Source of the DNA: an uncultured Candidatus Saccharibacteria bacterium
GTDB taxonomy: Bacteria > Patescibacteriota > Minisyncoccia > Phycocordibacterales > UBA5272
NCBI GenBank assembly: GCA_964517625.1
Contig: CAZFBW010000001.1
Coordinates: 40,319-104,318 of the forward strand
DNA length: 64,000 bases
Direction of reading: 5' to 3'
Positions 3,240 to 63,249 of the stretch are shown here, in pieces (position 1 is the stretch's first letter; every line of letters starts with the position of its first letter). Position numbers and translations under genes: made by a program. The notes below the pieces were generated by a model. That model worked only from the letters and a program-made list of their open reading frames with translations, did not search any database and was not told the origin of the DNA.

Positions 3240-3387
3240 AAATTCGGTTCAATGAACCAAAACTTCCACAGAGTCACACCTGAGTGTGAACGTGGAAGTT
3301 TTTTATTTTATGGCGGGAATCGCTTCTCCCTTCGGTCGAAACGCACTATTTTTATAGTCACTTCGTTTCTTAAAAATAGGCGCCCTC

Positions 3388-3410
3388 GGTTCGATTCCCG
3401 CCGGAGGGCA
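3388..3410 (+). repeat. Inverted copy of the tRNA-Arg 3' end (ggttcgattcccgccggagggca) lying just past the tRNA terminator
   Basis: 22/23 identical to the 3' T-loop/acceptor of the minus-strand tRNA at 3435..3506, but on the opposite strand. It is part of the composite element at 3311..3412. Confidence 0.7.
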
Positions 3411-3434
3411 AGGAAAAACACGAAGTGTTTTTAG

Positions 3435-3580: not shown

Positions 3581-3916
3581 ATGTCAGGAACCGATTTAAC
3601 TAACCAAGAAAAATTAGAAGAAGTATACAGAATTACCGTGGAGAATAATCATATTCTTCACGGCATGCGTAATCGCGAACGAGTAGCAAACGCACTACGT
3701 ATCGTTTACTGGTTGGTTATCATCCTCTCTCTTGCTGGTGCTTACTACTATATTCGCCCTGTTATTGATTTATTTACAACAAATAAGGACAAGGTTGATC
3801 AAACGCTTATGCAGTTTCAAGAACTTCAGCAACAACTTCCACAAATGAAGGTGTTCCAGCAGTTTCTCAATAATTTGAAATCCTCAGAAACGGTTAATCA
3901 AGAACCGGTGCAATAA
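3581..3916 (+). CDS. Hypothetical small membrane protein
   Basis: 111-aa ORF with one TM helix. TATACT lies 6 nt upstream of the ATG, suggesting a leaderless mRNA. Confidence 0.5.
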   Translation: MSGTDLTNQEKLEEVYRITVENNHILHGMRNRERVANALRIVYWLVIILSLAGAYYYIRPVIDLFTTNKDKVDQTLMQFQELQQQLPQMKVFQQFLNNLKSSETVNQEPVQ

Positions 3917-3990: not shown

Positions 3991-4063
3991 GCTGGGATAG
4001 CTCAGTTGGTAGAGCATTTGCCTGAAGAGCAAAGGGTCCCCAGTTCGAGCCTGGGTCCCAGCA
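3991..4063 (+). tRNA. tRNA-Phe (anticodon GAA)
   Basis: GCTGGGATAGCTCAGTTGGTAGAGC…CTGAAGA…GGTCCCCAGTTCGAGCCTGGGTCCCAGCA. Canonical cloverleaf; CCA is not encoded. Confidence 0.9.
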
Positions 4064-4201
4064 CAAAAATTAAAAAACTGCGTGAAAGCAGTTTTTTAAT
4101 TTTGCTGGAGCCGGGCTTGGGAAGAGGGTCGGAGAAACGGGAGTTTCTCCGTGGCGGAAGAATCGAAACCGCAGGGTTTCGAAACAAAACTCTGTTTTGT
4201 T

Positions 4202-4224
4202 GAGCCTGGGTCCCAGCACAAAAA
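4202..4224 (+). repeat. 23-nt direct repeat of the tRNA-Phe 3' end plus flank (gagcctgggtcccagcacaaaaa)
   Basis: Identical to 4047..4069. About 137 bp separate the two copies, and the second is followed by an 11-bp-stem hairpin at 4226..4254. Confidence 0.8.
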
Positions 4225-5954: not shown

Positions 5955-8099
5955 TTAATTCCAAGAAGTAACAATAAGCATTCTATCTTCAGGTGTTTTT
6001 ATGTATTTCCAAATTTCCTCAGTAATAAAAGGCATGAAGGGATGAATCACAACAAGCTGTTCACGGAGTAAGGTAAGGAGGAGTGTCTGTGCACTTTCTT
6101 TGTTGTTGTTTTCGAGAATGCGAACCTTACGAGTTTCGATGAGAACGTCGCAGAAGGTCTTCCAGAAGTAGTCGTAGATTTTTTCAGAGGCGAGGTGCAG
6201 GCGATAGTTTTCAATATCGTCAGTAATGTCCTTTTTGATTGCTTGCCAGGATTGGTATACCTCTTCATCTTCTTTTGTAAGTGGTACAGGTTTTTCAAAG
6301 TCCGCCGTTCTTTCCAAAACGAAACGTGATGCGTTCCAAATTTTGTTTGAGAAGAGCTTGTATGCCTTTACTTTATCTTCGCCAAGTTTCAAATCGTTTC
6401 CTGCTCCGTTTCCTACAATAAGCGCCATGCGAAGGGCATCGGTTCCATATTTACTGGAGAGGTCGCGTGGGTCAAGAGCGTTGTTGAGGGACTTACTCAT
6501 CTTGCGACCCTGTGCATCGCGCACAAGTCCGTGCAAGTACACCGTCTTAAATGGAACAGTGTTGAGTGCATACGTTGAAAACAAAATCATACGCGCAACC
6601 CAGAAGAACAAAATGTCATGACCAGTTTCAAGCACATCGGTTGGATGAAATGTTTTAAAGTCTTCTGTATCATGTGGCCAACCAAGTGTAGAGAATGTCC
6701 ACAGTCCAGACGAGAACCATGTGTCGAGCGTGTCCTCATCTTGTACCCACTCGTTACCAGATGGCGCTTCTAACCCACAAAAAAGTTCATCACCTTTGTA
6801 CCAAACAGGAACACGATGGCCGTACCAAATTTGTCGCGAGATGCACCAGTCTCGCAAATTATCAATCCAGTGGAAATACACTTTTTCAAATCGGTCAGGA
6901 AGAATTTGAGTGTTGTGAGATGCAACTGCGTCGCGCATTAATTGTTTTAGCGTTGTTGTTTTTCCAAAATGTTTGAACTCTTTATTAACCGCAATCCACC
7001 ATTGAAGTTTTGGAAGTGGTTCAACGATACCGCCAGTTCGTTCTGCTGTTGGTACATTTTGTTTTGATTCTTCTTCGCTTATAAGCAAATTGTTTTCACG
7101 AAGCCAATTTACGATGTATTCACGTGCGTCAGTTACCTTCTTTCCGTTAAGCTCTTCGTTTTTGAGACCGTACATTTTAGCGTACTCGTTGATAACTTGT
7201 CTGCTTTCTAGGCGGTGACGCTCTTTCATGTCCCAGTCAATTGCACTGTGCGCAGGGGTCACACCGAGCGCTCCCGTACCAAAATCTTTTTCGACGGCGG
7301 TATCCGCAATGATTTTGACTGAAATGGGGCATCCAGCAAATTGAATATCAAAGATTTTACCTACATATTGTTTGTAGCGTTCATCGTCTGGATGCACCGC
7401 CACCGCAGTGTCTCCCACTTTTGTTTCTGGGCGGGTGGTGGAGATGGCGATAGGAAAATCAGGGGAATATTTGAAGGTATAGAGCTTGGTTGTGCGCTCT
7501 TCCATGACTATTTCATCGTCGGAAATTGTGGTTTGGCCTTTTGGGTCCCAGTTTACTATGCGTTCTCCGCGGTAAATAAGGCCATCATCATACATTTTTT
7601 TAAACATGGTACGCACCGCCAAGTTTCTCTCCTCGTCCATCGTGAAAGCAAGTCTCGACCAATCAAGTGAGGCACCCATGGTGCGGAGTTGGGAAAGAAT
7701 AGTGTTTTGGCTTTCAAGTGCAAAGTCATTAACGCGCCGCAATAGTTCTTCACGACCAATGTCATGTCTGTTTTTACCTTCTTCTTTTTGAATTTTCTTT
7801 TCAACTACCGATTGTGTGGCAATTGCCGCATGGTCAGTTCCAGGAAGCCAGAGTGTTTTGTATCCGCGCATACGTTTGAAGCGAATGAGAATATCTTCAA
7901 TCACAAGCATGAGTGCATGGCCGGTGTGGAGCGTACCGGTAACATTTGGTGGAGGAAGAATAATGGTGTAGGCGCCCTTGTCAGAAGCGGGGAGGTTGTC
8001 TGGATTAAAGTACCCACTTTTCTCCCATGCTTCATAGAGCGGTTTTTCAACCGATTGAGCATCAAATGGTTTGGTTAGTTGTTCTGGCAATTGCTTCAT
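5955..8099 (-). CDS. valS: Valyl-tRNA synthetase (compact 714-aa form)
   Basis: PPPNVTGTLHTGHA (HIGH region) and GRKMSKSLNN (KMSKS); class I editing-type aaRS architecture. Confidence 0.9.
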   Translation of the reverse strand: MKQLPEQLTKPFDAQSVEKPLYEAWEKSGYFNPDNLPASDKGAYTIILPPPNVTGTLHTGHALMLVIEDILIRFKRMRGYKTLWLPGTDHAAIATQSVVEKKIQKEEGKNRHDIGREELLRRVNDFALESQNTILSQLRTMGASLDWSRLAFTMDEERNLAVRTMFKKMYDDGLIYRGERIVNWDPKGQTTISDDEIVMEERTTKLYTFKYSPDFPIAISTTRPETKVGDTAVAVHPDDERYKQYVGKIFDIQFAGCPISVKIIADTAVEKDFGTGALGVTPAHSAIDWDMKERHRLESRQVINEYAKMYGLKNEELNGKKVTDAREYIVNWLRENNLLISEEESKQNVPTAERTGGIVEPLPKLQWWIAVNKEFKHFGKTTTLKQLMRDAVASHNTQILPDRFEKVYFHWIDNLRDWCISRQIWYGHRVPVWYKGDELFCGLEAPSGNEWVQDEDTLDTWFSSGLWTFSTLGWPHDTEDFKTFHPTDVLETGHDILFFWVARMILFSTYALNTVPFKTVYLHGLVRDAQGRKMSKSLNNALDPRDLSSKYGTDALRMALIVGNGAGNDLKLGEDKVKAYKLFSNKIWNASRFVLERTADFEKPVPLTKEDEEVYQSWQAIKKDITDDIENYRLHLASEKIYDYFWKTFCDVLIETRKVRILENNNKESAQTLLLTLLREQLVVIHPFMPFITEEIWKYIKTPEDRMLIVTSWN

Positions 8100-11082: not shown

Positions 11083-13599
11083 ATGTCGTTTATTTCCAAG
11101 GCAATTGAGTTGGTTTTCCCGCCTGAGTCGGTACGCCTCATTAAGAAACTTGAGCCCCTCGTTGATGAGGTTTTTGGATATGAAGAAGCACTAAAGGCTC
11201 TTTCAAACGACGAATTAAAAGCGCGCAGTTTGGCACTTAAAGAGCAAGTGCAAAAAGAACTTACTGGTCTTTCTGGGGAGGAACGCAAAAAAACAGAAAA
11301 GAAGGTTTTGGATGCAGTGCTTCCAGAGGCGTTTGCACTTGTGCGTGAGTCAGCTCGTCGTACGCTTAAAATGATGCACTATCGCGTGCAGGTGGTTGGA
11401 GGCATGCTTCTTAATATGGGTCATATTGCAGAAATGCGTACCGGTGAAGGAAAGACGCTTGTTGCCACGCTTCCGGCATACTTAAATGCGCTCACTGGCC
11501 GCGGTGTACACATTGTTACGGTAAACGACTATCTCTCTCGTCGCGACGCGGTGTGGATGGGGCAGGTGTATGACATGCTTGGACTCTCGGTTGCCGTCAT
11601 TAACCATCAATCATCCTACCTCTACGACAGTACCCACCTTTCACAAGAAGAGGAAAAAACTGAAGACGAGAAGCGTGATGATGTTGGTTCATATAAAGTC
11701 GTCTACGATTTTCTAAAACCGTGCACGCGCCAAGAAGCATACAAGGCAGACATTACCTATGGAACAAACAACGAGTTTGGTTTTGATTATTTGCGCGACA
11801 ATATTGGCTACGCGGTTGATTCTTTGTCTCAGCGTGAGCACCATTACGCAATTGTGGACGAAATCGACTCAATTTTGATTGACGAGGCACGTACCCCGCT
11901 TATTATTTCCGCACCAGCGCAGGAATCAAGCGATATGTATAAGAATTTTGCACGTATCGCATCCCAACTTGTGGAAGGGGATCACTATACGGTAGATGAA
12001 AAACAGCGCGCAATTGCACTCACCGAAGCAGGTATCTCCTATGCAGAAGAACTGCTCGGCGTTTCAAATATTTATTCGGTATCTGGCATGCAATACGTGC
12101 ACCATTTGGAAACCGCGGTCAAAGCAAAAGCACTTTTTATCAAGGAACGCGAATATGTTGTGCGCGATAACGAGGTAATCATTGTTGATGAATTTACGGG
12201 ACGCATGCAACCAGGACGTCGTTGGTCAGATGGGCTTCATCAAGCAGTTGAAGCAAAAGAAGGGGTAAAAATCGAACAAGAATCTCGCACTCTTGCTTCT
12301 ATTACGTTCCAAAATTATTTCCGCTTCTATGAAAAACTTTCGGGTATGACCGGTACCGCGGAAACATCTAAAGAAGAATTTTATAAAGTATATGGACTTG
12401 TTGTGTCTCCTGTACCAACACACCACCCAATTAAGCGTAAGGATCACAATGATCTCATTTTCCAAACCGAAAAAGGGAAATGGAAAGCACTTGCTCGAAA
12501 AATTAAAGAACTTCACGATAAAGGACAACCGGTACTTGTCGGTACTATTTCTATTGAAAAGAACGAAGTGCTTTCAAAGTATCTTGAACGTGAAGGAATT
12601 CCTCACGCTGTACTTAATGCGAAGAACCACGAACAGGAAGGTGAAATTATTGCAAATGCGGGAGCGCGCGGGGCAGTGACGATTGCAACTAACATGGCAG
12701 GTCGTGGAGTGGACATTAAACTTGGTGGTCCGCAAGCAACGGAAGCTGAGCGTGAAGAAGTACTTCGTCAAGGTGGTTTGTATGTGATTGGTACTGAGCG
12801 TCATGAAGCACGCCGTATCGACAATCAGTTGCGGGGTCGTTCAGGACGACAAGGGGACGTGGGTGAGACGCAGTTCTTTGTGTCGCTTGAAGATGAGCTT
12901 ATGCGTGTGTTCGGGTCAACCAACATCAAGAGTATGATGGGGCGTTTTGGTATTCCAGAAGATGAACCAATTGATTCTAAGCTCGTCTCTCGAGCACTTG
13001 AGGGTGCGCAAGAAAAAATTGAAGGATTTCACTTTGATACACGTAAACACACGCTTCAGTATGACGATGTTTTGAACCACCAGCGAAGAAGTATTTATGA
13101 TAAGCGTCGTAAAATTTTGTTCCACGACAAGGAATATTTTGAGGAATTGATGAATTCGGTTGTTGCATTCAAACCCGAAATAGCAGAGCTTATTGCGACG
13201 AAAAAGAAGGAGTACGGTGAAGAGGTTTTTATGAGTGTTGTTTCTATGATGGCGCTTCAAGTAATCGACATGCTTTGGATGGACCACCTCGACCAAATGG
13301 AGCACATGCGAAATAGTGTGAATCTTCGCTCATACGGACAACGTGATCCACTTGTTGAATACAAAAAAGAAGGGCTTCGTATGTTCAGAGGATTGGAACA
13401 AACAACGCTTCACGACCTCGTTCTCTTCATTGAAAACATTGATGGTGTTATGGCCGCACAGCATAATCGCGAACGTGTCGCGGCAGTTGCAAGCGAAAGA
13501 GATAGAGTAAAAGCTGGACGCAATGACCCATGCCCATGCGGAAGTGGAAAGAAGGTAAAGAAGTGCGATTGTGAGGAGTTTGCTTACTTGAGGAAGTAG
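11083..13599 (+). CDS. secA: Preprotein translocase ATPase SecA
   Basis: DEAD-like motor motifs and the C-terminal zinc finger CPCGSGKKVKKC. Confidence 0.9.
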   Translation: MSFISKAIELVFPPESVRLIKKLEPLVDEVFGYEEALKALSNDELKARSLALKEQVQKELTGLSGEERKKTEKKVLDAVLPEAFALVRESARRTLKMMHYRVQVVGGMLLNMGHIAEMRTGEGKTLVATLPAYLNALTGRGVHIVTVNDYLSRRDAVWMGQVYDMLGLSVAVINHQSSYLYDSTHLSQEEEKTEDEKRDDVGSYKVVYDFLKPCTRQEAYKADITYGTNNEFGFDYLRDNIGYAVDSLSQREHHYAIVDEIDSILIDEARTPLIISAPAQESSDMYKNFARIASQLVEGDHYTVDEKQRAIALTEAGISYAEELLGVSNIYSVSGMQYVHHLETAVKAKALFIKEREYVVRDNEVIIVDEFTGRMQPGRRWSDGLHQAVEAKEGVKIEQESRTLASITFQNYFRFYEKLSGMTGTAETSKEEFYKVYGLVVSPVPTHHPIKRKDHNDLIFQTEKGKWKALARKIKELHDKGQPVLVGTISIEKNEVLSKYLEREGIPHAVLNAKNHEQEGEIIANAGARGAVTIATNMAGRGVDIKLGGPQATEAEREEVLRQGGLYVIGTERHEARRIDNQLRGRSGRQGDVGETQFFVSLEDELMRVFGSTNIKSMMGRFGIPEDEPIDSKLVSRALEGAQEKIEGFHFDTRKHTLQYDDVLNHQRRSIYDKRRKILFHDKEYFEELMNSVVAFKPEIAELIATKKKEYGEEVFMSVVSMMALQVIDMLWMDHLDQMEHMRNSVNLRSYGQRDPLVEYKKEGLRMFRGLEQTTLHDLVLFIENIDGVMAAQHNRERVAAVASERDRVKAGRNDPCPCGSGKKVKKCDCEEFAYLRK

Positions 13600-13622
13600 T
13601 TTTGTGGTATTCTTTGTCTCAT

Positions 13623-14234
13623 ATGGCAAAGAAAAAAACAAAAACGAAATCTGTGAAGAAAACAGTTGCGAAAAAAGCAAAAAAAGTTGTTGCAAAAAAA
13701 TCATCACTTAAGAAAAAGGTTTTGAAAAAGAAGCAAGCAAAAAAGAAGCCGGTTGTGGTTGCTGTGTCTGGTGGATTTGATCCAGTACACATTGGGCATG
13801 TTCGCATGTTTAATGAAGCGAAAGCGCTCGGAGATAAATTAGTTGTCATTTTAAATAACGATCACTGGATTCGTAAAAAGAAGGGGCAGGAATTCATGCC
13901 TGATCATGAACGAAAAGAAATCATTGAATCATTTTCTTCAGTTGATGAAGTGTTTCTCACAGAACACGGTCCAAATACAACTGACATGAGTGTGTGTGAT
14001 GCACTTCGTAAAGTCAGACCACACATTTTTGCAAACGGCGGTGACCGTCATGCAGACAATGTACCAGAGGTTGCTGTGTGCCGCGACATTAATTGTCAGA
14101 TGGTGTACAGCGTCGGCAAGGGTGGTAAGGTTCAATCAAGTTCATGGTTGCTTAAGCGTCATGAAGAACACAAGATGCTCCGAATGGCGATACACGACAC
14201 GTTTAAAAAAGCGGTAAGTAAGAAAAAGAAATAA
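13623..14234 (+). CDS. Cytidylyl/adenylyltransferase-like nucleotidyltransferase (HxGH family) with a lysine-rich N-terminal tail
   Basis: GGFDPVHIGHVRMF (HxGH) as in RfaE domain II / glycerol-3-phosphate cytidylyltransferase. The first about 50 aa are K-rich. Confidence 0.6.
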   Translation: MAKKKTKTKSVKKTVAKKAKKVVAKKSSLKKKVLKKKQAKKKPVVVAVSGGFDPVHIGHVRMFNEAKALGDKLVVILNNDHWIRKKKGQEFMPDHERKEIIESFSSVDEVFLTEHGPNTTDMSVCDALRKVRPHIFANGGDRHADNVPEVAVCRDINCQMVYSVGKGGKVQSSSWLLKRHEEHKMLRMAIHDTFKKAVSKKKK

Positions 14235-14246
14235 GTCTTATACACA

Positions 14247-14280
14247 CAAAGCACGGAACCTTCGGTTCCGTGCTTTGTGT
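14247..14280 (+). terminator. Terminator hairpin
   Basis: caaagcacggaacc-ttcg-gttccgtgctttg. Confidence 0.7.
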
Positions 14281-14323
14281 TAAACTAGTAACTATCAACC
14301 ACTAACCAGTAACTATCCAACCC

Positions 14324-15601
14324 ATGAAAGAACTCGTAAAACCCATCATTGTCTATCTGCTCACCCTTGAAGCAAAACTCGTTCTTAAAAAGAAAAAACC
14401 GTTTATTATCGGTATCACAGGTAACCTTGGGAAGACCTCCACGAAGGATGCGGTGTATGCAGTCATGAAAGATCACTTTAATGTTCGTCGAAGTGAAAAG
14501 AGTATGAATAGTGAGTTCGGTGTTCCGCTTACTATACTTGGTGAAAAATCTGGTTGGAGTAATCCGTTTAGGTGGGCCATGACACTTGCACGCGGACTAT
14601 TTGTTCCCTTTGAAGATGATTATCCAACGCACTTAGTACTTGAAATCGGAGCAGACAGGCCGGGGGACATTAAGTCAATCACTTCGTGGCTTCATCCAGA
14701 CATTACCATTGTCACGCAGTTTGGACAGGTGCCAGTACACATTGAATTTTTTAAAAATAGAGACGCAGTGGTAGAAGAAAAGGGATACCTTGTTGAAGCA
14801 CTTAAACACACCGGTGTTTTTATTTACAATCGCGATGACCATGATGCAGAAAAACTCCTTCCTCGCACCCTCGGTAGAAAGGTGAGTGTTGGTGTTCATG
14901 AAGAAGCAGAGATTAGAGCAGAAAATATTCGCATGTATGGAAATCCGATGCAAGGCACAGAGGCTGAGGTGACTGTGTTAGGTAAAAAGCATCATCTTGT
15001 ACTTCCAGAAGTTGTTGGTAAATCTCCAGTGTATGCTGCGCTTCCCGCAATTGCTGTTGCACGTGAACTTGCAATTCCAACGGAGCTTGCATGTGCCTCA
15101 CTTCGTGACGCTGAGAAACCAAAGGGTCGCATGCGACTGCTTTCAGGTATGCAAGGCTCAGTCTTAATTGATGACACGTACAACGCATCTCCTAAAGCAA
15201 CTGAGCACGGACTAGAAACACTTGCTTCACTTGATGTGCAAAGAAAAATTGCAGTGCTTGGGGATATGCTTGAACTTGGTTCTCATACTAAAGAAGAGCA
15301 TTACAAAATTGGAAAGATTGCCGCAAAATCATGCCATAAACTTTTTACGGTTGGTATTCGTGCGCGAGGAATGGCTGAAGGAGCGCTTGATGGAAAAATG
15401 CTTGATGAAAATATTATGCAGTGTGATTCATCAATTGATGCAGGAAAAGAATTGGTGAAAATATTGCGACCAGGGGACGTGGTGTATTTGAAGGGTTCAC
15501 AAGGTGTGCGTATGGAACGTGCGGTGAAAATGATTTTAGCAGAAACACACAAAGCAGAAGAAACATTGGTTCGCCAGGAACAAGAATGGAATCATAGGTA
15601 A
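14324..15601 (+). CDS. murF: UDP-N-acetylmuramoyl-tripeptide--D-alanyl-D-alanine ligase
   Basis: Mur ligase P-loop GITGNLGKTSTK and the typical domain order. Confidence 0.85.
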   Translation: MKELVKPIIVYLLTLEAKLVLKKKKPFIIGITGNLGKTSTKDAVYAVMKDHFNVRRSEKSMNSEFGVPLTILGEKSGWSNPFRWAMTLARGLFVPFEDDYPTHLVLEIGADRPGDIKSITSWLHPDITIVTQFGQVPVHIEFFKNRDAVVEEKGYLVEALKHTGVFIYNRDDHDAEKLLPRTLGRKVSVGVHEEAEIRAENIRMYGNPMQGTEAEVTVLGKKHHLVLPEVVGKSPVYAALPAIAVARELAIPTELACASLRDAEKPKGRMRLLSGMQGSVLIDDTYNASPKATEHGLETLASLDVQRKIAVLGDMLELGSHTKEEHYKIGKIAAKSCHKLFTVGIRARGMAEGALDGKMLDENIMQCDSSIDAGKELVKILRPGDVVYLKGSQGVRMERAVKMILAETHKAEETLVRQEQEWNHR

Positions 15602-17012: not shown

Positions 17013-17084
17013 GGCCCTATCGTCTATCGGTTAGGACACATCCTTCTCAAGGATGGAAGCAGAGTTCGACTCTCTGTAGGGTCA
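17013..17084 (+). tRNA. tRNA-Glu (anticodon CUC)
   Basis: Acceptor GGCCCUA/UAGGGUC, anticodon stem CAUCC/GGAUG with loop UUCUCAA, T-arm CAGAG-TTCGACT-CTCTG. An extended -10 (TGtTACTAT) sits upstream. Confidence 0.85.
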
Positions 17085-17264
17085 CAAAAAATAAGGAGCA
17101 AAGCGACTATATTTTTGTGATGTCGGAGTACTTAGACTTTTATGAGTGAAGCGAAATAAAAGGCTTTAGTACTATCGACGCACAAATAAGACATCAAACC
17201 AAAGGATTTCTAAGGAGCGAACCGACTCGTAAGGGTCACGGGTAAAAGTGCTATAATTGAGAAA

Positions 17265-22765: not shown

Positions 22766-23536
22766 TTAGAACTCTTTTTTCTTAAAGCTAAGGTTGGCAA
22801 GATAGAAAAGAAGGCCTGAACAAAAGATTGCATACAGGAACGCGACAAAAAGTGTCATCATGCTTGGAATTTCCCCAAAGACAATGTCATTTCTGATGTT
22901 GAATTTTTCAAGATTTGGCAATAGATAGTAGATACCACGCGCTACGACTTCACTTGCTGTTGAGATGGGAAAAGCAATGAGTGGGCGGAGTGAATCTCCA
23001 GAATGTCCTGCTAAGAAAAAGACGACGGTGTAGATAGCGGAAAGAATTGGAGAGGTGAATCCAGAAAAAAGAATTGAAATAAAAATGAGAATCATTGCTT
23101 CAAGCGTACTTAAAAATACCGAGACAAGAATAGGGACGAAAAAGGAAACTCCACCTTTTAAGAAAAGAATAACAAAGAGCGCAAGGGAGGAAAGCAGGGT
23201 AACGGCAAGTGTTGTAAAGGTAAGTCCGAACGCTTTTCCGAGAATGATTTCATATCGGTGGATTGGCTTTGGCAGGATGAGGAAAAATGTTTTCTGTTCA
23301 ATTTCCTTGTACATGAGCATACTTCCAATGAAGATAGCAACAAAGATTTGTAGGATGTAAATTGCTGAAACGCCGAAGTCCACAATCATGCGCAAGTTTT
23401 GTTCAAGTGAAATGCTTCCGATGAAGAGGGTAAACGCGATGATGACAAGGACAACGGCGAGTGCGGCGAGTAAAATGCGGTCGCGCATGGTTTCGCGAAA
23501 GGTGTTGTGGGCGATGGTGAAAATATTACGAAACAT
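22766..23536 (-). CDS. ABC-2 family transporter permease
   Basis: Six-TM ABC-2 permease pattern. The internal Met start overlaps the upstream ATPase stop. Confidence 0.7.
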   Translation of the reverse strand: MFRNIFTIAHNTFRETMRDRILLAALAVVLVIIAFTLFIGSISLEQNLRMIVDFGVSAIYILQIFVAIFIGSMLMYKEIEQKTFFLILPKPIHRYEIILGKAFGLTFTTLAVTLLSSLALFVILFLKGGVSFFVPILVSVFLSTLEAMILIFISILFSGFTSPILSAIYTVVFFLAGHSGDSLRPLIAFPISTASEVVARGIYYLLPNLEKFNIRNDIVFGEIPSMMTLFVAFLYAIFCSGLLFYLANLSFKKKEF

Positions 23537-24260
23537 GGTATTGGCGTGAAGTTTCAATAATGTGCACAAATGCATCTTCCAAGTCACGGTGGCCGATAGA
23601 TAAACTTTGTGGTGTGTCGTGTGCAATGAGTATGCCTTTATCGATAATACCGACCACGTCGCAGATTTCTTCGACGTCTGCCAAAATGTGTGAGTTAAAG
23701 AATATGGTTTTACCTTGTTCTTTAAGGGCAAGAATAATTTTTTTTACTTCAGCGCGACCAAGTGGGTCAAGGCCGTCTAGTGGTTCGTCTAAGAAAAGAA
23801 TATCTGGATTGTTGATGAGCGCTTGGGCAAGACCAAGACGCTGAAGCATGCCTTTTGAGTAGGTGCGAATTTGTTTGTTTTTGGCATGGCTCAAATCAAC
23901 ACTCATTAAGATGTCTTCAATGTGGTGGTTGGGGTGTGCTTGTTTAAAAATTTTTGCAATGAATTCCAAAAATTCTTTGCCCGTTAAATATCCGTAGAAC
24001 GCAGGGGATTCTGGCATGAAGCCGATTTTTGCGCGAACAGAAATGTCATCTGGAGTTCCGCCTAAAAGTGAAATGGACCCTTCCGTTGGTTTAGAAAGTC
24101 CGACGAGCATTTTTATGGTTGAGGTTTTACCAGCGCCGTTTGGTCCAAGGAAACCAAAAACGGTCCCCATGGGTATTTCTAGAGTGAGATTTTTTACAAC
24201 GCTGTGCTCACCGTTCGTGAAGTACGTCTTGGTGACATTTTGAAGGGTTATCCCGTGCAT
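23526..24260 (-). CDS. ABC transporter ATP-binding protein
   Basis: Walker A GPNGAGKTST, the LSGGM signature and Walker B ILFLDEP. Confidence 0.85.
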   Translation of the reverse strand: MHGITLQNVTKTYFTNGEHSVVKNLTLEIPMGTVFGFLGPNGAGKTSTIKMLVGLSKPTEGSISLLGGTPDDISVRAKIGFMPESPAFYGYLTGKEFLEFIAKIFKQAHPNHHIEDILMSVDLSHAKNKQIRTYSKGMLQRLGLAQALINNPDILFLDEPLDGLDPLGRAEVKKIILALKEQGKTIFFNSHILADVEEICDVVGIIDKGILIAHDTPQSLSIGHRDLEDAFVHIIETSRQYHVS

Positions 24261-24328
24261 AGGAAAATAGTACCAGAATAGGGGGAAAGCGCAATGAGGG
24301 GGAGAGAAACATGGTCGTCATTATGTTG

Positions 24329-24415
24329 CGGAGAGAGCGAGATTCGAACTCGCGGACCCAATAAAGGGTCGACAGTTTAGTAAACTGTTGATTTAAACCA
24401 CTCATCCATCTCTCC
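24329..24415 (-). tRNA. Type-II (long variable arm) tRNA, Ser-like, with apparent anticodon ACU (unusual A34)
   Basis: GGAGAGAUGGAUGAGUGGUUUAAAUCA-ACAGU-UUACUAA-ACUGU-variable arm-GCGAG-TTCGAAT-CTCGC-UCUCUCC-G. G73 discriminator. A TATAAT promoter lies about 30 nt upstream. The anticodon is read from a hand fold. Confidence 0.6.
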
Positions 24416-24441
24416 GATTTTTCCACACAGACACCTATTTT

Positions 24442-24465
24442 GCGGCGCAGAATTATAGTCGCTTT
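24442..24465 (-). promoter_or_regulatory. tRNA promoter -10 region (minus strand aaagcgacTATAATtctgcgccgc); 24-nt motif repeated at 26223..26246
   Basis: Exact TATAAT positioned correctly for the tRNA at 24415. The same 24-mer recurs 1.78 kb away. Confidence 0.55.
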
Positions 24466-24595
24466 GCTCCTTAATTCTGCATCCTGCAAAAATATGGTTG
24501 CCCCACTCCTTCTTGTGTTGCTAGACGCAACACGTGCGAAGTGATTTGAAGCTTTTTTGTATGGAACGCTTCGCTTGCAAAAAACTTAAAATCAG

Positions 24596-24682
24596 CGGAG
24601 ACGATGGGATTTGAACCCATGAAGGGCGTAAACCCTTGCCTCGTTAGCAGTGAGGTGCCTTCGACCACTCAGCCACGTCTCC
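24596..24682 (-). tRNA. tRNA-Ser (anticodon GCU)
   Basis: Type-II tRNA. Acceptor GGAGACG/CGUCUCC, G73, anticodon loop CUGCUAA, long variable arm, T-arm ATGGG-TTCAAAT-CCCAT. Confidence 0.8.
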
Positions 24683-24801
24683 GAATCGTCATATTCTAGC
24701 ATGATATTCATATCATTTCTAATGGTTGATTAATACCAATATTTTCACAATACGTTTGCTATACTCAAACCAAGTTGATCTTTTACAGGAAAGGGTAAAT
24801 C

Positions 24802-25707
24802 ATGAAAATGTTTTTTTCATTCATGGACCGCGTGGCGCGAGTGCCATGGTGGTTGTACATCGTAACTGTAGTTGTTCTTGCTGGTGTCGTTAAATATTTT
24901 CATCTCTGGGATGGATTGATTCAAAATCCATTTTGGTCGGTGATTGTTACCACGGTTGTGCTCACCCAAATCACGATTGCGGGGGTGACAATCTATTTGC
25001 ATCGCAACCAAGCTCACAGTTCACTCGTACTTCATCCTATCGTCAGCCATTTTTTCCGTTTTTGGATGTGGCTAACAACCGGCATGAAAACGAAAGAGTG
25101 GGCAGCGATTCATCGCAAACATCACGCTAAAGTTGAAACAAAAGACGACCCGCACAGTCCGAAGACGTACGGTATTTTGCGTATTGTGTTTGCTGGGGTG
25201 TTTCTGTATGTGTGCGAATCGCATAACAAAGAGACACTTAAGCGTTACGGACACGGAACCCCAGATGATGAACTTGAGAGGAAGGTATACACGCCGTATC
25301 ACAAGTATGGCATTGTGCTTATGCTCCTTTTTGATTTTTTCGTGTTTGGTTTTCTGTTTGGACCAATTATCGGTCTTGCAATTTGGCTTGTGCAGATAGC
25401 TTGGATACCTTTCTGGGCCGCTGGTTTTATCAATGGTGTCGGACACTATTTCGGCTACCGAAACTACCCTAGCTTAAACAGGAAAACGGGGGAGCTAGAT
25501 TGGTCGAGGAACATTGTTGCTTGGGCTTTCTGGATTGGTGGGGAAGAGCTTCACAACAACCATCACGCCTATCCTACAAGTGCCAAACTTTCGGCGAAGT
25601 GGTACGAGTTCGATATTGGTTGGATGTATATCCGCATCTTGGAAACACTCGGATTGGCAAGGGTGAAGTTTGCTTACGGCCGTACGAAAGGGCCCTTCGA
25701 CATCTGA
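24802..25707 (+). CDS. Fatty-acid desaturase (membrane acyl-CoA/acyl-lipid delta-9-like)
   Basis: Three His boxes: HRNQAH, HRKHHAKVE and HNNHHAYP. Confidence 0.8.
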   Translation: MKMFFSFMDRVARVPWWLYIVTVVVLAGVVKYFHLWDGLIQNPFWSVIVTTVVLTQITIAGVTIYLHRNQAHSSLVLHPIVSHFFRFWMWLTTGMKTKEWAAIHRKHHAKVETKDDPHSPKTYGILRIVFAGVFLYVCESHNKETLKRYGHGTPDDELERKVYTPYHKYGIVLMLLFDFFVFGFLFGPIIGLAIWLVQIAWIPFWAAGFINGVGHYFGYRNYPSLNRKTGELDWSRNIVAWAFWIGGEELHNNHHAYPTSAKLSAKWYEFDIGWMYIRILETLGLARVKFAYGRTKGPFDI

Positions 25708-25824
25708 TTTCTTTAGACGCGTAAACGAAAGTTCACGCGTTTTTTATTTTGTGATTTGTTGTGGTAGTATCAAAAATAGAATCCGCGCTTGTGCGGGTAT
25801 GTTCTATAGAAGGAGGGTATTATC

Positions 25825-26172
25825 ATGAAAGAGGGCCTGATTCGCCTCGGCACACCCGTCGAGGTAACAGCACCTGGTGGCTTGATTCGTAGAGGGTACG
25901 TATCAGCGTTTGATACGGTTGTCATCCACAAGAAAAGTGATATCAGTGCAGAACGCGTCAGTGTTTTTTACATTGACGACACAATGAAGCCCAAGCACGA
26001 ATCCTTTCTTTTCGAGGGAGAGTACTGGGTTGACTTTGCGGTGTACAATGCGAAAAAACACACATGTCTTCCGGTCTACAAGATTCGTGCTGTGCCGTTC
26101 GCGGGGCTTGCTCCACACGTTGAGCAAGAAGGGGCTGTGCCGAAATCAGGCGAAGTCGACTTCGAGCTCTAA
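25825..26172 (+). CDS. Hypothetical protein (115 aa)
   Basis: Normal composition; terminator hairpin at 26184..26220. Confidence 0.45.
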   Translation: MKEGLIRLGTPVEVTAPGGLIRRGYVSAFDTVVIHKKSDISAERVSVFYIDDTMKPKHESFLFEGEYWVDFAVYNAKKHTCLPVYKIRAVPFAGLAPHVEQEGAVPKSGEVDFEL

Positions 26173-26222
26173 AGTTTTTCTTTAGCCGGTTGTTGTAAGA
26201 ACAGCCGGCTTTCGTTTTTTTG

Positions 26223-26246
26223 GCGGCGCAGAATTATAGTCGCTTT
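26223..26246 (-). repeat. Second copy of the 24-nt tRNA-promoter motif (gcggcgcagaattatagtcgcttt), with no tRNA downstream
   Basis: Identical to 24442..24465 and directly adjacent to the 3'-fragment copy of tRNA-Ser(CGA). Confidence 0.8.
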
Positions 26247-26255
26247 ACGCCTTGT

Positions 26256-26278
26256 TTTTGCGGAAATGGTGGGATTTG
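26256..26278 (-). repeat. Orphan copy of the tRNA-Ser(CGA) 3' end (23 nt), about 180 bp from the intact tRNA
   Basis: ttttgcggaaatggtgggatttg is identical to 26454..26476. Confidence 0.8.
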
Positions 26279-26458
26279 GTCACCAAACATATCTTTTTAT
26301 TTCATGACTACATTCATAAAAAGATTGTTTCGCGACCCCGACTTCACCCTCGCTGTTTTTGATTACAAAATCAGACTTCGTCTCGGGTTCAGTTCAAATC
26401 TACTCATTTCTCGCAAAATACAATTGCACAAAGCTCACGCTTCGTGCTCATTATTTTG

Positions 26459-26545
26459 CGGAAATGGTGGGATTTGAACCCACGAACAGATTACTCCGTT
26501 GCCTGATTTCGAGTCAGGTGCCTTCAACCACTCAGCCACATTTCC
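26459..26545 (-). tRNA. tRNA-Ser (anticodon CGA)
   Basis: Type-II tRNA. Acceptor GGAAAUG/CAUUUCC, G73, anticodon stem CCUGA/UCAGG with loop CUCGAAA, T-loop TTCAAAT. Confidence 0.8.
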
Positions 26546-26603: not shown

Positions 26604-27395
26604 TTATTTCCCGCTCATTTCTTTCTCCCACTGTTCCAATTTCTTTGCAACTGCGTATCTACGTGAAGGAATCCATTCACGAAGCAAAACGTTACGACTT
26701 CCTTTCGTGTGTTGTGGGGTTGCTTCCAAATCTTTTCCTTTCCACAGTTCAAGCGCGATGCGCAAGAGCTCAACCTCAGCACGGTTATTCAAATCTTGGA
26801 AACATTCTTTTGGTGGAATCGTTATGTCCGCATGAAGTGTGGCAAGCATGTCGCCCGTGTCCACTTTTTCGTGCAAATAGTGAATAGTTGCACCAATATT
26901 CTCTCTTTCATCATGAAGCACGGCAAAGTGGTTCGCAACTGCTCCTCGGTAGTGTTCTCCCAAGCCCATGTGCAAATTGATTGCATGTCTTGCCAGTCTA
27001 AAAATACGTGGTTCAATCACAGCTGTTCCCCAGATAACAAGTAGGCGAGGTTTTAGTTTTTTTAACAGTTCGTACACTTCCTCGCTATTTACGGAATCCA
27101 CCTCAAGAACTTTTGGAATGTATTGAAGACCTCGTTCTTTTTTATCGCGAATGCGGAAGTATTGCAGGTAGTGTTTTGCTTTTTTGCTTAAACGAAGGAG
27201 AAGGGCGTACAGCAGTTCGCGTGGAACACATTTCCAACCAACCGTTTTTGCAATATTGGAAAGTGTCTTTGTTAAGGGTACTTGTTTTGGTTTTTGAATG
27301 ATGACGTATGATACCCCATTCTGGGTTTGTTTGTGGAGGAGGTTGCCGAATTCTATTTTTTGGCTTCCAGGAATGGTTATAAAGACGATACTCAT
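26604..27395 (-). CDS. Formyltransferase family protein (Fmt/ArnA N-domain-like)
   Basis: Formyl_trans_N pattern: …AINLHMGLGEHYRGAV…HYLHEKVDTGDMLA (catalytic N/H/D). Confidence 0.6.
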   Translation of the reverse strand: MSIVFITIPGSQKIEFGNLLHKQTQNGVSYVIIQKPKQVPLTKTLSNIAKTVGWKCVPRELLYALLLRLSKKAKHYLQYFRIRDKKERGLQYIPKVLEVDSVNSEEVYELLKKLKPRLLVIWGTAVIEPRIFRLARHAINLHMGLGEHYRGAVANHFAVLHDERENIGATIHYLHEKVDTGDMLATLHADITIPPKECFQDLNNRAEVELLRIALELWKGKDLEATPQHTKGSRNVLLREWIPSRRYAVAKKLEQWEKEMSGK

Positions 27396-32382: not shown

Positions 32383-32501
32383 ACGCTTGTTTCCAAGTAA
32401 TTGATTAGGGAACACGCAGTTCGTTGTAAGTAAGAGTTGGTTTGATAATCCTGAAATTTCTCAGGACTCTGCCAATCCTTGCACCCAAAAAGGAGAAGTT
32501 T

Positions 32502-33380
32502 ATGAACAAGGACATGCCGAAGCTTAACCACTTCACGGAGCGTCGATCCTTCCTGCTTGCGCAGGTCAACGCAACGGAGACGAGCGGTGATGTCACCATC
32601 GACATCCCGCAAGATGCACTCGTTGCCACCAACAAGGAGGGTCGTAAGTTTTTCGAAGCTGACCCGATGAACAAAGGAATCTATCGCTGGCCAGCTGGTG
32701 GCGTGGGGCTCATCCTGGAACTGAACGACGCCAACATCCTTCTTGCAATTTATCGCGACAAGGATGCGCCGAGTTACGGTGGACACGATACGCTGTCCTC
32801 GGGTCTTGGTTCGAGTGTCCGCGAACTTCTCTACCCCCTGGAAACAGCGTGGAGAGAAGGAGCGGAAGAGCTCTGCATCACGACCCCGGACTCCGTCATC
32901 TGTCCAATTCCCGAAAACGACCACTTCGGTTTTGGAATTGAACTGTCGGAGGTGGTGCGCGGAACGGCAAACCTTTTCCCGGAACTCATCGAGAAGAAGG
33001 TCGTCGATGTTGCCACCACATTCCTTCCGCTTCGCGGGGAACGTGAAATCATCATCAACTACGCCGGCAAGCAACGTCGGTCCCGTGGTCTTGTGGTGTT
33101 TGATGCTGGATGCAATGGCATCGATATCATCAAGGCTGTCGTGGTCCCGGTCAACTGCTCGCTTTCCGAGCTCAAGGTGTACGATGGTGAGCTCGGTTCT
33201 GGAAGCAAGCCTGAGCCACTCAACAGGCGTGTGAATGCATACGCGCTTGACGGCAACTTCCGACCCTTGGGAGGCGGCATCATCGCTTCATGGATTCGCG
33301 GAGAACGGGTTGAAACGGAAACGAAACAAAACCCGATGACCCCGGTCCTCAAGGTTTTCTACGAAGCCCTTAATTGCTAA
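32502..33380 (+). CDS. Hypothetical protein encoded by a GC-rich gene (about 56% GC versus about 40% background)
   Basis: 292 aa with normal amino-acid composition. A Shine-Dalgarno site and a consensus promoter are present. The antisense strand carries long spurious ORFs, as expected for GC-rich DNA. Terminator at 33383..33428. Confidence 0.6.
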   Translation: MNKDMPKLNHFTERRSFLLAQVNATETSGDVTIDIPQDALVATNKEGRKFFEADPMNKGIYRWPAGGVGLILELNDANILLAIYRDKDAPSYGGHDTLSSGLGSSVRELLYPLETAWREGAEELCITTPDSVICPIPENDHFGFGIELSEVVRGTANLFPELIEKKVVDVATTFLPLRGEREIIINYAGKQRRSRGLVVFDAGCNGIDIIKAVVVPVNCSLSELKVYDGELGSGSKPEPLNRRVNAYALDGNFRPLGGGIIASWIRGERVETETKQNPMTPVLKVFYEALNC

Positions 33381-33998: not shown

Positions 33999-34102
33999 AG
34001 GAACAGTATATAGGTGTTAGGGACTAGGGACTAGTGGAAAAACGGTTGTTTTTCAATTAGCAGAAGGCTCGTACACCCCCACTTTACTAAAAAGTAGTCT
34101 TA

Positions 34103-41633: not shown

Positions 41634-41766
41634 CCCTACCTAGCACACAAAAAGGCCAACTCTCGAGTTGGTCTTTTTTCTTACAAAATTTGATTTTTCA
41701 AAAGTTGATTTGCTTCGTCATTACTATGTGTGATAGGATAAATTTGTTTTGTCCTTTGGGGGATTT

Positions 41767-42024: not shown

Positions 42025-42106
42025 AAATCGTTGTTTTAAAAGACCCCACGAAAGGGGTCTTTTTTCTTACAAAAATTGCTTTTTCAAAAATGGTATAATG
42101 ATGGTC

Positions 42107-51312: not shown

Positions 51313-51709
51313 CAGATTACCTTTCACGGTTGCTGTGTTAGACCAAAATTTCTTGACCGTTTTCAAGGATAAATGGAATCATTGGAAAATCGGCGCATGT
51401 GCGAGGTGGTTTTTCTTCTGGTGTTTCTTCGGGTGGAGGAGACGGTAGATTTTCTCTGGTGTCCATGGTCAAATCCCTTTTAGTTGAAAGAGCAACACAA
51501 TACACCTTACCACGTGAAAAGTTACTCGTAAAGATGGTGTTTTTATGATAGTATTGTTATTTATAAGCAATGCCGGAGTGGCTCAAGTAGCTTGGCTACG
51601 CAGACGTCTGTAGCTAGCAAGCGAAAGACGCTGAATGGTTTCCATTCCGAGCATGTGTAATGTGTTTATTATATTTTTTGTAGAAAGATATAAACAATAA
51701 GAGAATTAT

Positions 51710-51790: not shown

Positions 51791-51851
51791 CTATAAATAT
51801 AAAATGACCACATACACGAAGTGTGGTTATTTTATATTTACTGTACCTGGT

Positions 51852-51955
51852 GGAGAGAGGACTTGAACCGAAGGCGACATATTTTCTTAGACTGTAATCA
51901 GTCTGTTGAAAATACAAGTCTCGACTGAAAGGAGAAACAAGTCCTCTCTCCGGCA
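51852..51955 (+). repeat. Composite tRNA-associated element (Leu copy): inverted 18-nt copy of the tRNA-Leu 3' end, a conserved about 55-bp core with a hairpin, then a direct 18-nt copy of the tRNA 3' end
   Basis: 51852..51869 is the reverse complement of GGTTCAAGTCCTCTCTCC. The core gaaccgaaggcgacatattttcttagactgtaatcagtctgttgaaaatacaagtctcga is shared with 63107..63166. 51938..51955 (caagtcctctctccggca) is identical to the tRNA 3' end. Confidence 0.8.
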
Positions 51956-51981
51956 TAGCAATTGCGCTATACTTACTCCAT

Positions 51982-54376: not shown

Positions 54377-54566
54377 GTGATTCTCCTTGTGTCGTAAGTA
54401 GCGGGGGCCGAAATTGGCCTCCCGCATGGTGCTATGGGTTGCTTGCGGTGTTCAAAGTACTGCTACTACAAGGGCCTGGCAAGAACCGTAGTTCTCCCAA
54501 GCCTCGTACTTCTACCCTATATTATTGCATATTTTAACACTTTTGTCAATACCACACACACACTCC

Positions 54567-63059: not shown

Positions 63060-63092
63060 CCAAGAAAAATACCCATCAGGGTATTTTTTAAT

Positions 63093-63198
63093 GCCGGGAA
63101 GGATTTGAACCGAAGGCGACATATTTTCTTAACCTGTAATCAGGTTGTAGAAAATACAAGTCTCGAGCGTAGCAACGCGAGAGGCAAATCTTTCCCCC
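63093..63198 (+). repeat. Composite tRNA-associated element (Tyr copy): inverted 19-nt copy of the tRNA-Tyr 3' end, the conserved core with a covarying hairpin, then a degenerate direct copy of the tRNA 3' end
   Basis: 63093..63111 is the reverse complement of GGTTCAAATCCTTCCCGGC. The core is 52/57 identical to the Leu copy. The hairpin taacctg-taat-caggttg covaries with Leu's tagactg-taat-cagtctg. 63185..63198 (caaatctttccccc) resembles CAAATCCTTCCCGG. Confidence 0.8.
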
Positions 63199-63249
63199 AC
63201 AAACTTTTCTCTTTTTTGGTATACTAAATTTACTTGTAAAGCACAGGTT

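Follow-up and report, generated by a model that had tools for sequence, protein, structure and literature searches.

Palindromic units behind tRNA genes in and around a rearranged tRNA-Ser cluster of an uncultured Patescibacteriota bacterium

In plastid genomes, partial tRNA pseudogenes are found at inversion endpoints, and tRNA paralogues serve as substrates of recombination. REP, BIME and REPIN elements and the MITEs of bacteria (miniature inverted-repeat transposable elements) are short, intergenic, multi-copy and non-coding hairpins with covarying stems that often double as terminators, and the integron attC site and the attP(+) hairpin of CTX phage are folded, single-strand recombination sites. 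Sublocation classes for integration into tRNA genes were reportedly distinguished by Williams in 2002. For elements that integrate into tRNA genes (tDNA), the commonest crossover (attP) site is the T-stem region (PMC4383910). Here we analyzed a 64,000-nt stretch of an uncultured Candidatus Saccharibacteria bacterium (Patescibacteriota in the GTDB; contig CAZFBW010000001.1, positions 40,319 to 104,318; hereafter, the window), in which a cluster of three tRNA-Ser genes holds a fatty-acid desaturase gene, a repeated 24-mer and an orphan copy of a tRNA 3' end. The original prediction, made from the letters alone, took the 24-mer for a duplicated tRNA promoter and proposed that it and the orphan fragment bracket a segment brought in by an event that captured the desaturase. 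The observation is confirmed and this interpretation is partly supported. We propose, with a probability of roughly 60%, that the duplicated pieces are parts of a recurrent family of tRNA-linked palindromic repeats, that its units move by recombination at the T-loop, and that the desaturase is an older resident of the site.

The repeats are real. The 24-mer GCGGCGCAGAATTATAGTCGCTTT occurs exactly twice in the window (24442-24465 and 26223-26246), as does the 23-mer TTTTGCGGAAATGGTGGGATTTG (26256-26278 and 26454-26476; 0 expected), which consists of the last 17 nt of tRNA-Ser(CGA) and 6 nt of its trailer. In 100 shuffles neither had a match, even with 3 mismatches permitted. If the comparison is widened to 43 nt around the 24-mer (24438-24480 versus 26219-26261), the two sites are 86% identical. 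ARAGORN and Rfam concur that the three type-II tRNAs on the minus strand are all tRNA-Ser, and the degenerate inverted copy of the tRNA-Ser(CGA) 3' end that had been noticed was also found (Table 1). Calls of open reading frames (ORFs), Pfam domains and tRNAs likewise agreed with the predicted content of the 1.78-kb segment between the 24-mers, namely tRNA-Ser(GCU), the desaturase gene and a 115-aa gene, to which a terminator is added.

The orphan fragment does not bracket the desaturase segment, as had been supposed; it bounds a 175-bp palindromic insert without any ORF, which separates it from the intact tRNA-Ser(CGA), and this layout recurs at other tRNAs. The whole unit is about 200 nt long and runs from the tRNA through a bidirectional terminator, the inverted 3' end and a hairpin core to the direct 3' end. 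The direct and inverted copies pair, and the 207-nt stretch folds at -71.7 kcal/mol (z = -7.9). One arm of this palindromic unit is the orphan fragment, and the other is the degenerate inverted copy. Its core shares the TGTAATCA loop motif with the Leu and Tyr units of the window, and its GGGGTCG motif is also present in Phe, Arg and Ser(ACU) elements of relatives. Two other sources were considered and rejected: a 198-bp tandem duplication, because the sequences beyond the two 23-mers are unrelated, and, for the units in general, decay of whole inverted tRNA duplicates, because only the Tyr-type core is significantly similar to a tRNA body, and this core is short.

For comparison with relatives, the formyltransferase-like gene that flanks the cluster belongs to a family of 37 proteins in 5.8 billion and is therefore a good synteny anchor. 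The named genome records that carry it are all metagenome-assembled genomes of Parcubacteria, Paceibacteria or Kaiserbacteria type, with 35-51% identity, which places the window in a bacterium of the candidate phyla radiation; these distant Parcubacteria showed no synteny at the tRNA-Ser locus. The closer relatives are metagenome contigs, which were ranked by their formyltransferase identity: L007 (97.6% at the nucleotide level), L001 (88% at the amino-acid level), L002 and L003 (82%) and L047 (65%). In addition, L033, from the same sample as L002, and L035 (NCBI assembly GCA_964467185.1) together cover the part of the chromosome with tRNA-Arg, tRNA-Phe and tRNA-Glu.

The architecture found behind tRNA-Ser(CGA) recurs in the window, with at least six units in 64 kb. 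In tRNA orientation, a unit consists of the tRNA, a terminator made of an A-run, a hairpin and a T-run, an inverted copy of the last 17-22 nt of the tRNA, one to three hairpins, and a direct copy. The inverted arm runs from the discriminator back into the T-loop, the direct arm has its start within the T-loop, at CAAATCC for Ser(CGA), CAAGTCC for Leu and GAGCC for Phe, and the two arms close a long stem. Under strict criteria, five of the eight window tRNAs are followed within 350 nt by a copy of their own 3' end, either direct (Phe, Ser(CGA) and Leu) or inverted (Arg, Leu and Tyr, the last matching at 19/19), and the rate for shuffled queries was 0.002; at tRNA-Glu the layout is weak. Behind tRNA-Phe, a second terminator, the original one, follows the direct copy. 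In every unit the fold is a terminal stem that encloses hairpins (z = -3.6 to -7.9, those other than Ser(CGA) reaching -6.5). A survey of repeats across the whole window placed most long ones at tRNA genes, when low-complexity repeats and simple terminator palindromes are left aside.

The cores of the units are shared between different tRNAs and between species. The Leu and Tyr cores have 67 nt in common at 91% identity, and part of the Leu core is similar to tRNA-Tyr in the region of its anticodon arm and variable junction. Given that this Tyr-like core lies behind tRNA-Leu with its junction at the conserved T-loop, movement between tRNA loci is indicated. The Phe core (4119-4185) is 89.6% identical over 67 nt to the core behind tRNA-Ser(ACU) of L002 and also matches the end of L001. 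The Phe unit is kept behind the orthologous tRNA-Phe in three genomes, those of the window, L033 and L035 (GlmS 81% and 68% identical), and the RNAalifold consensus of four copies has a terminal stem and two hairpins, with compensatory changes on both sides in 8 of 29 pairs; a set of four sequences has little statistical power. The Arg unit has an orthologue in L033, where a stem covaries and roughly 150 nt of extra sequence are inserted. In L002, mini-versions of the form ATATTTTGCGAGAT-hairpin-GCCGCAAA lie in the spacers of the tRNA-Ser pair, and their ends mimic an inverted and a direct tRNA-Ser 3' end. The Ser(CGA) unit itself is missing in L002, L001 and L007, whose flanks are rearranged as well.

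Two further observations concern these loci. Behind the tRNA-Phe unit of L033, a second core of Leu/Tyr type (loop CGTAATCG) lies at 5982-6040; therefore, different core types can be nested or arranged in tandem. We also found orphan fragments of tRNA 5' ends 35-120 nt upstream of the intact gene in the window (51572-51590, tRNA-Leu(CAA)), in L002 (7796-7807, tRNA-Ser(CGA)) and in L047 (about 3703-3720, tRNA-Ser), for which the 3'-end unit does not account.

The conservation of the units behind orthologous tRNAs introduces the question of whether they move at all. They might instead be selected cis-acting or RNA modules of tRNA operons, such as extended terminators or insulators that work in both directions, signals for processing, or small RNAs with a terminal helix that copies the acceptor and T-arm of the neighbouring tRNA. 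In that case they might have been built in place by palindrome extension through template switching, with gene conversion keeping them matched to the tRNA. The conserved position across species with compensatory changes, the strong folding, the terminator at the centre of a palindrome formed by the tRNA end and its inverted copy, and the Phe unit of L035, both arms of which match the tRNA-Phe variant of that genome, are all in line with this idea. However, a core derived from tRNA-Tyr behind tRNA-Leu, and a single core at both Phe and Ser(ACU), point to transfer between loci. Moreover, the arms are often decayed (the inverted arm of Phe and the direct arm of Tyr), and the direct arm of the Phe unit in L033 matches a tRNA-Phe variant other than its own. 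No Rfam family covers the units: in Rfam 15, only the 8 tRNAs reached the gathering score, and permissive scans of four element regions gave no meaningful match. We therefore think that purely non-mobile modules are a rather unlikely explanation.

The repeated 24-mer is also a piece of this family. It is the 3' arm of a conserved hairpin, which we call S, and the S module belongs with the palindromic units. Copy B of S lies in front of tRNA-Ser(ACU) and forms a hairpin (z = -4.25). Its 16-nt loop starts with AGGAGCAAAGCGAC and ends with the first TA of a TATAAT (24457-24452), so that this motif straddles the loop and the 3' arm. Copy B is identical at 65 of 66 positions to L002 7946-8011, where S directly follows the tRNA-Ser(CGA) terminator and precedes a 221-aa gene by about 50 nt. 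Copy A, which has lost its 5' arm and does not fold as a hairpin (z = -0.76), occupies the same position as the S of L002, just behind tRNA-Ser(CGA). In total there are eight S copies, four in the window, two in L002 and two in L033. Each adjoins a tRNA, their orientation is the same throughout, and GACTATA does not vary among them. The loop motif AAGGAGCAAAGCGACTATA in the tRNA-Glu trailer hairpin (17093-17111) is identical to copy B over 19 nt, and a variant of it is found inside the Arg unit. The stems covary (GCAGAATTA/TAATTCTGC versus GCAGAAATA/TATTTCTGC, and CTATTTTTA/TAAAAATAG versus CAATTTTTA/TAAAAATTG), as judged by inspection, with indels that shift the stem register between family members.

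These properties make the label of tRNA promoter, which the original prediction gave to the 24-mer, doubtful. A real promoter that was duplicated would explain the perfect TATAAT in copy A, copy B and the S of L002, the invariant GACTATA, and the position of S upstream of tRNA-Ser(ACU) in the window and of the 221-aa gene in L002; copy A would then drive antisense transcription into the unit formed by the 115-aa gene and the desaturase. However, S has no -35 box at the expected 16-18 nt (the best match is 3/6), a scan for consensus promoters made no call there, and the TATAAT, at a distance of 36 nt from the 5' end of the tRNA, is partly taken up in a 9-bp stem. Nor is the position conserved: tRNA-Ser(ACU) of L002 has a different hairpin upstream and no S, other members lie in the tRNA-Glu trailer and inside the Arg element, and copy A faces a terminator. 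Because S in L002 lies behind tRNA-Ser(CGA) and before a protein gene, we regard the promoter as an unlikely identity for S. Searches outside the relatives gave nothing of note. The matches to the 21-mer core of S in metagenomes were in two contigs of an unrelated high-GC organism with nothing else in common and were set aside as chance; scans of viral contigs for the S 21-mer, for the Phe-type B-core and for the Leu/Tyr-type A-core gave no match; and a degenerate S-loop pattern had 9 matches in viral contigs, about the level of chance and none in a hairpin context.

Table 1. Features of the window and gene orders in relatives. In the orders, F is the formyltransferase-like gene and arrowheads give orientation.
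Feature	Position	Strand	Remarks
Unit behind tRNA-Arg(CCU)	3312..3433	-	Terminator; inverted copy 3407-3388 (95% over 20 nt); S-type hairpin (3371-3350); partial direct copy 3322-3312
Unit behind tRNA-Phe (3991-4064)	4065..4224	+	Terminator; degenerate inverted 3' end (about 4103-4122); B-core (4119-4185); direct copy (4200-4224)
S-type hairpin, tRNA-Glu trailer	17083..17119	+	Kept in L033
ABC-transporter ATPase gene, flanking	23526-24260	-	Pfam scan
Block with tRNA-Ser(ACU), S, tRNA-Ser(GCU) and its promoter	24296..24723		Inverted relative to L002
tRNA-Ser(ACU)	24328..24415	-	Type II, A34; ARAGORN; Rfam tRNA 56.3 bits
S copy B, intact	24438..24491	-	Inner stem GCAGAATTA (24480-24472) / TAATTCTGC (24455-24447); outer stem TTTTGC/GCAAAA; loop AGGAGCAAAGCGACTA
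Spacer behind tRNA-Ser(GCU)	24492..24594	-	Weak remnant like a tRNA 3' end (24537-24550; 86% over 14 nt, possibly a chance match) and small hairpin
tRNA-Ser(GCU)	24595..24682	-	ARAGORN and Rfam; adjacency to desaturase also seen in Logan contig L032
Delta-9-type membrane fatty-acid desaturase, 301 aa	24802..25707	+	PF00487
115-aa ORFan downstream of desaturase	25825..26172	+	Pfam: no match
Intrinsic terminator of desaturase/115-aa unit	26184..26210	+	Kept in L001 and L007
S copy A, truncated	26219..26261	-	3' arm and loop kept (24-mer 26223-26246, TATAAT 26238-26233); 5' arm replaced by tRNA trailer GCAAAA
Direct orphan copy, distal arm	26256..26278	-	T-loop to 3' end plus 6 nt of trailer; exact 23-mer
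Core of tRNA-Ser(CGA) unit	26279..26391	-	Hairpin with TGTAATCA loop (about 26374-26353); motif GGGGTCGCGA (26339-26330)
Degenerate inverted copy of tRNA-Ser(CGA) 3' end, proximal arm	26392..26414	-	79% complementary
Terminator hairpin directly 3' of tRNA-Ser(CGA)	26426..26447	-	
tRNA-Ser(CGA), intact	26458..26545	-	Type II; ARAGORN and Rfam
Formyl_trans_N-family gene (formyltransferase-like), flanking	26604-27395	-	Pfam scan
Unit behind tRNA-Leu(CAA)	51792..51956	+	Terminator; inverted copy 51852-51869 (18/18); A-core; direct copy 51931-51955 (18/18)
Unit behind tRNA-Tyr	63063..63205	+	Terminator; inverted copy 63093-63111 (19/19); A-core, as in Leu; degenerate direct copy
Order in window			F> CGA> [175-bp insert] fragment> S_A> <115aa <desaturase GCU> S_B> ACU> ABC>
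Order in L002			F> CGA> terminator S> 221aa> <89aa <desaturase <DNA ligase <108aa [tandem tRNA-Ser(ACU) fragments] <ACU <GCU ABC>
Order in L001			F> <CGA terminator <115aa <desaturase, then tRNA-Ser(ACU)-fragment element at contig end

The described systems closest to the units include the tDNA islands and prophages of tyrosine integrases, as collected by Islander (PMC4383910). As in these, the tRNA of a unit is regenerated and a direct 3' fragment is displaced, the repeat starts in the T-loop/T-stem region and ends a few bases past the tRNA, and the insert brings a new terminator. An intact tRNA with a fragment in the same orientation on one replicon, which Islander looks for, is present at Ser(CGA), exact over 23 nt, and also at Phe and Leu, and the fragment starts in the T-loop, within one of the canonical crossover sublocations (T-stem/T-loop or anticodon loop). 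Unlike islands, the units are 110-200 bp long and carry neither integrase nor cargo; at Ser(CGA), the 175 bp between tRNA and fragment contain no ORF. They also have an extra inverted copy of the tRNA end, which makes them palindromic, and cores that are common to inserts at different tRNAs and conserved across species.

It could be argued that the units are the eroded stumps of integrase-encoding islands or prophages that had integrated in the T-loop region and lost all their genes. The intact tRNA with a displaced direct 3' fragment from the T-loop is the very signature of tDNA integration (PMC4383910), the new terminator stands beside the regenerated tRNA with the original one after the fragment at tRNA-Phe, and L002 carries extra cargo (an ATP-dependent DNA ligase and small ORFs) behind its tandem tRNA-Ser(ACU) fragments. 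Against this, no integrase turned up in L002 or among the 21 window proteins scanned, six or more tRNAs would each need an island eroded to 110-200 bp, an inverted tRNA-end copy is foreign to a normal att site, the cores are common to elements at different tRNAs and covary, and the unit behind tRNA-Phe is retained in three species. Erosion of islands thus seems unlikely to us.

The units also share with REP, BIME, REPIN and MITE elements their short, intergenic, multi-copy, hairpin-forming and non-coding nature and their covarying stems, and several copies with terminal inverted repeats and a hairpin fold are indeed present. They differ in that the terminal inverted repeats vary, copying the 3' end of the adjacent tRNA where such families have constant ends, in that they are tied to tRNA genes, and in that no RAYT or other cognate transposase was found in the window. 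As in attC and the CTX attP(+) hairpin, two inverted, target-like copies 60-110 nt apart can fold into a duplex target site; however, no integron integrase was found among the window proteins and no sign of Xer involvement was seen, and the units are fixed behind tRNA genes, not behind gene cassettes or at dif. The plastid case resembles ours in that tRNA genes and fragments mark inversion endpoints, and differs in that the chromosome here is bacterial (Parcubacteria-type) and the fragments are set in regular palindromic units. We could match the architecture to no described family, and it is unusual for a reduced genome. It is tempting to see the units as an undescribed class of tRNA-templated foldback elements, and we put this forward tentatively, as a possibility that is less than even.

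From the architecture and its recurrence, the sharing of cores, the conservation across species, the starts in the T-loop and the inversions described below, we infer that recombination with its centre in the conserved T-loop may give rise to the units and move them. It would regenerate the tRNA's 3' end and displace the old one, as with tRNA-targeting integrative elements, and would act here on non-autonomous hairpin inserts of 110-200 bp; gene conversion from the neighbouring tRNA may have followed later. The inverted repeats of tRNA ends would make the tRNA genes prone to inversion and allelic exchange, giving the differing orders and orientations in relatives. The desaturase gene would have been gained earlier, once, from a proteobacterial source and inherited at the site, apart from the formation of the repeats.

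Several points weigh against this proposal. A Pfam scan of 21 predicted window proteins, mostly neighbours of the tRNA elements, found no recombinase, transposase, integrase or HUH enzyme, and the viral collections yielded no recombinase either. No pair of filled and empty sites with identical flanks was found, and mobility is thus inferred; the view of the genome is limited to 64 kb, and the junction of copy A and the fragment (26183-26300) falls outside every independent assembly. The units are missing at 14 tRNAs of more distant Parcubacteria contigs, and therefore the family is defined from a small set (the window, L001, L002, L033 and L035), with covariation based on 4-8 sequences only. 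Finally, judging from these sequences, conservation at orthologous tRNAs and covariation of hairpins would fit a selected function in place equally well as a selfish repeat.

The relatives support the original prediction in one respect, namely that the tRNA-Ser cluster has been rearranged and that the scars are tRNA 3' ends, since they differ from one another by inversions of tRNA-Ser genes. In L001, with which L007 is collinear, a 98-nt block with tRNA-Ser(CGA) is identical to that of the window, and it is inverted in both contigs. In L002, the block of the GCU/ACU pair is inverted, with the BLAST matches at 12284-12373 and 12506-12635 opposite in sense to that at 12645-14771; the end of the L001 contig suggests the L002-type orientation of this block. 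The C-terminus of the formyltransferase, the spacer and the orientation of the tRNA in the window are collinear with L002 and L047, and because these three share the orientation in which the formyltransferase gene is followed by a tRNA-Ser in the same direction, this orientation is probably ancestral. L007 is 97.6% identical to the window across the formyltransferase and 69% beyond tRNA-Ser(CGA), and the C-terminus of its 115-aa protein has 54% identity to that of the window, as against 73% for L001. This jump in divergence marks a breakpoint of recombination at the tRNA, in what otherwise is a single species. The tRNA-Ser locus is thus recombination-prone. Elsewhere, tRNA-Glu and its trailer hairpin (17013-17190, plus strand) correspond to L033 19313-19136 over 178 nt at 93.8%, inverted and in a different gene context.

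An assembly chimera at 26183-26300 might mimic such a rearrangement. The only window-type contig that approaches from the side of the desaturase stops at 26182, and the nearly identical strain L007 is arranged differently. However, repeats of 23-24 nt are shorter than the usual k-mers of assembly, the structure is the architecture of five other tRNA loci in the window, and the collinearity with L002 and L047 runs through the formyltransferase C-terminus, the spacer and the tRNA. A chimera is highly improbable. Independent Logan contigs match the window at 24638-25840 (98.3% identity) and 25187-26182 (100%).

The desaturase gene has a history of its own. The protein matches PF00487 with 61.8 bits (cut-off 29.7, E = 1e-16), the His boxes HRNQAH, HRKHH and HNNHH are seen in its translation, and it is 62-67% identical to Burkholderiales-type enzymes. 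Compared with the acyl-lipid and acyl-CoA delta-9 desaturases of this family in Betaproteobacteria, to which it is 62-67% identical over about 85% of its length with the same three His boxes, it is shorter (301 versus about 389 aa) and has no N-terminal extension, and unlike them it appears as a resident, vertically inherited enzyme of a small Parcubacteria clade. Its GC content at third codon positions, 0.51, is the highest in the window, the GC-rich 52.7-54.4 kb region aside. Nevertheless, the gene is not specific to this genome: its orthologues in L001 and L002 are placed between the same tRNA-Ser genes, and the 24-mer is not duplicated there; the gene lies between tRNA-Ser(CGA) and the GCU/ACU pair in every relative contig that reaches so far. 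In a neighbour-joining tree, the desaturases of the window, L001 and L002 form one clade (70-73% amino-acid identity) among Burkholderiales-type enzymes with 63-68% identity, and their branching, (L002,(window,L001)), agrees with the ranking by formyltransferase identity. No database record holds a desaturase identical to that of the window. The loci of the next desaturase clade (P0004; L045 and L046) held no tRNA, and those of P0129 (L004-L006) were not syntenic. The original prediction had proposed a phylogeny of the desaturase as a test of horizontal transfer; the tree fits a foreign origin of proteobacterial type followed by vertical inheritance, and the orthologues at the same site in L001 and L002 indicate that the gene is older than the duplication. 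The simplest reading of these comparisons is that one old transfer from a proteobacterium would have been followed by vertical descent at the site. We also noticed an ATP-dependent DNA ligase gene (PF01068) next to or near the desaturase in L002 (10310-11296) and L045 (5994-6983), but not in the window.

The neighbouring 115-aa gene forms a single cluster among 1.84 billion representative proteins. It has a homologue beside the desaturase in L001 (73% amino-acid identity) and a partial one at the same position in L007 (54%), whose contig ends before any desaturase would appear. Given that this gene is a lineage-specific ORFan, it did not come in together with the desaturase.

These results bear directly on the model of the original prediction, in which an array of the form Ser(CGA)-promoter-Ser(xCU) was split by insertion or recombination at tRNA 3' ends that duplicated the promoter and brought in the 1.78-kb segment. 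The direct repeats of 24 nt (exact) and 43 nt (86%) that flank the segment, and the foreign origin of the desaturase, are what the model would lead one to expect. Its predicted ancestral order was partly recovered, in that S lies directly behind tRNA-Ser(CGA) in L002, but no relative is without the intervening segment. Capture of the desaturase by the repeat-forming event is contradicted by the syntenic orthologues in L001 and L002, where the duplication is missing, by the monophyly of the three desaturases, and by the agreement of their branching order with the identity ranking of the flanking gene. In addition, L002 keeps tRNA-Ser(GCU) and tRNA-Ser(ACU) side by side, the 115-aa gene is an ORFan of the lineage and not proteobacterial, and the orphan fragment bounds the 175-bp insert rather than the 1.78-kb segment. 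We therefore consider insertion with capture very unlikely and the model largely refuted.

Some other features of the window deserve mention. tRNA-Ser(ACU) is 96.7% identical to its counterpart in L002 (12286-12373; BLAST match 12284-12373), with a compensatory change of C:G to U:A in the variable arm, and is therefore probably functional. It coexists with tRNA-Ser(GCU), and AGT and AGC codons number 109 and 58 in 27 long ORFs. Bacterial A34 tRNAs are normally limited to Arg(ACG) and, in some bacteria, Leu(AAG) (PMC8266599). Inosine at this position (I34) in tRNA-Ser(ACU) would also read AGA. A 572-aa ORF at 52709-54427 (minus strand) has 63% GC as against about 43% for the genome, the opposite strand is open too, and Pfam gave no match; this GC-rich stretch may have been acquired recently. 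At 32400-33000 there is another GC-rich patch (51-55% GC). A 26-nt inverted repeat with TAGGGACTAGGGACTAG at 34010-34035 and 60152-60177 stands just upstream of two genes, an rpoB-like one (34251) and one of 899 aa (60190), for which it may serve as a common regulatory site, and a 34-nt direct repeat, GGTCTTTTTTCTTACAAAATTTGATTTTTCAAAA (94%), is found at 41670-41703 and 42056-42089 between an rpoC-like gene and the next gene.

As originally written, the claim would describe something ordinary, since tRNA genes are hotspots of recombination and the desaturase was gained horizontally long ago and then passed on vertically. Regular palindromic units behind most tRNA genes of a genome that is expected to shed spare DNA are less ordinary. 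In practice, orphan tRNA fragments in such genomes should not be taken as island boundaries until the palindromic architecture has been checked. If the units are mobile, they would be a compact example of tRNA-targeted non-autonomous DNA in bacteria of the candidate phyla radiation and would offer a mechanism for inversions and allelic exchange at tRNA genes; as functional RNAs or terminators, they would instead be a new regulatory feature linked to tRNAs. If the reading as foldback elements is true, tRNA genes in these bacteria would be portable, invertible cassettes, or else the units would be small RNAs whose closing helix mimics the acceptor and T-arm.

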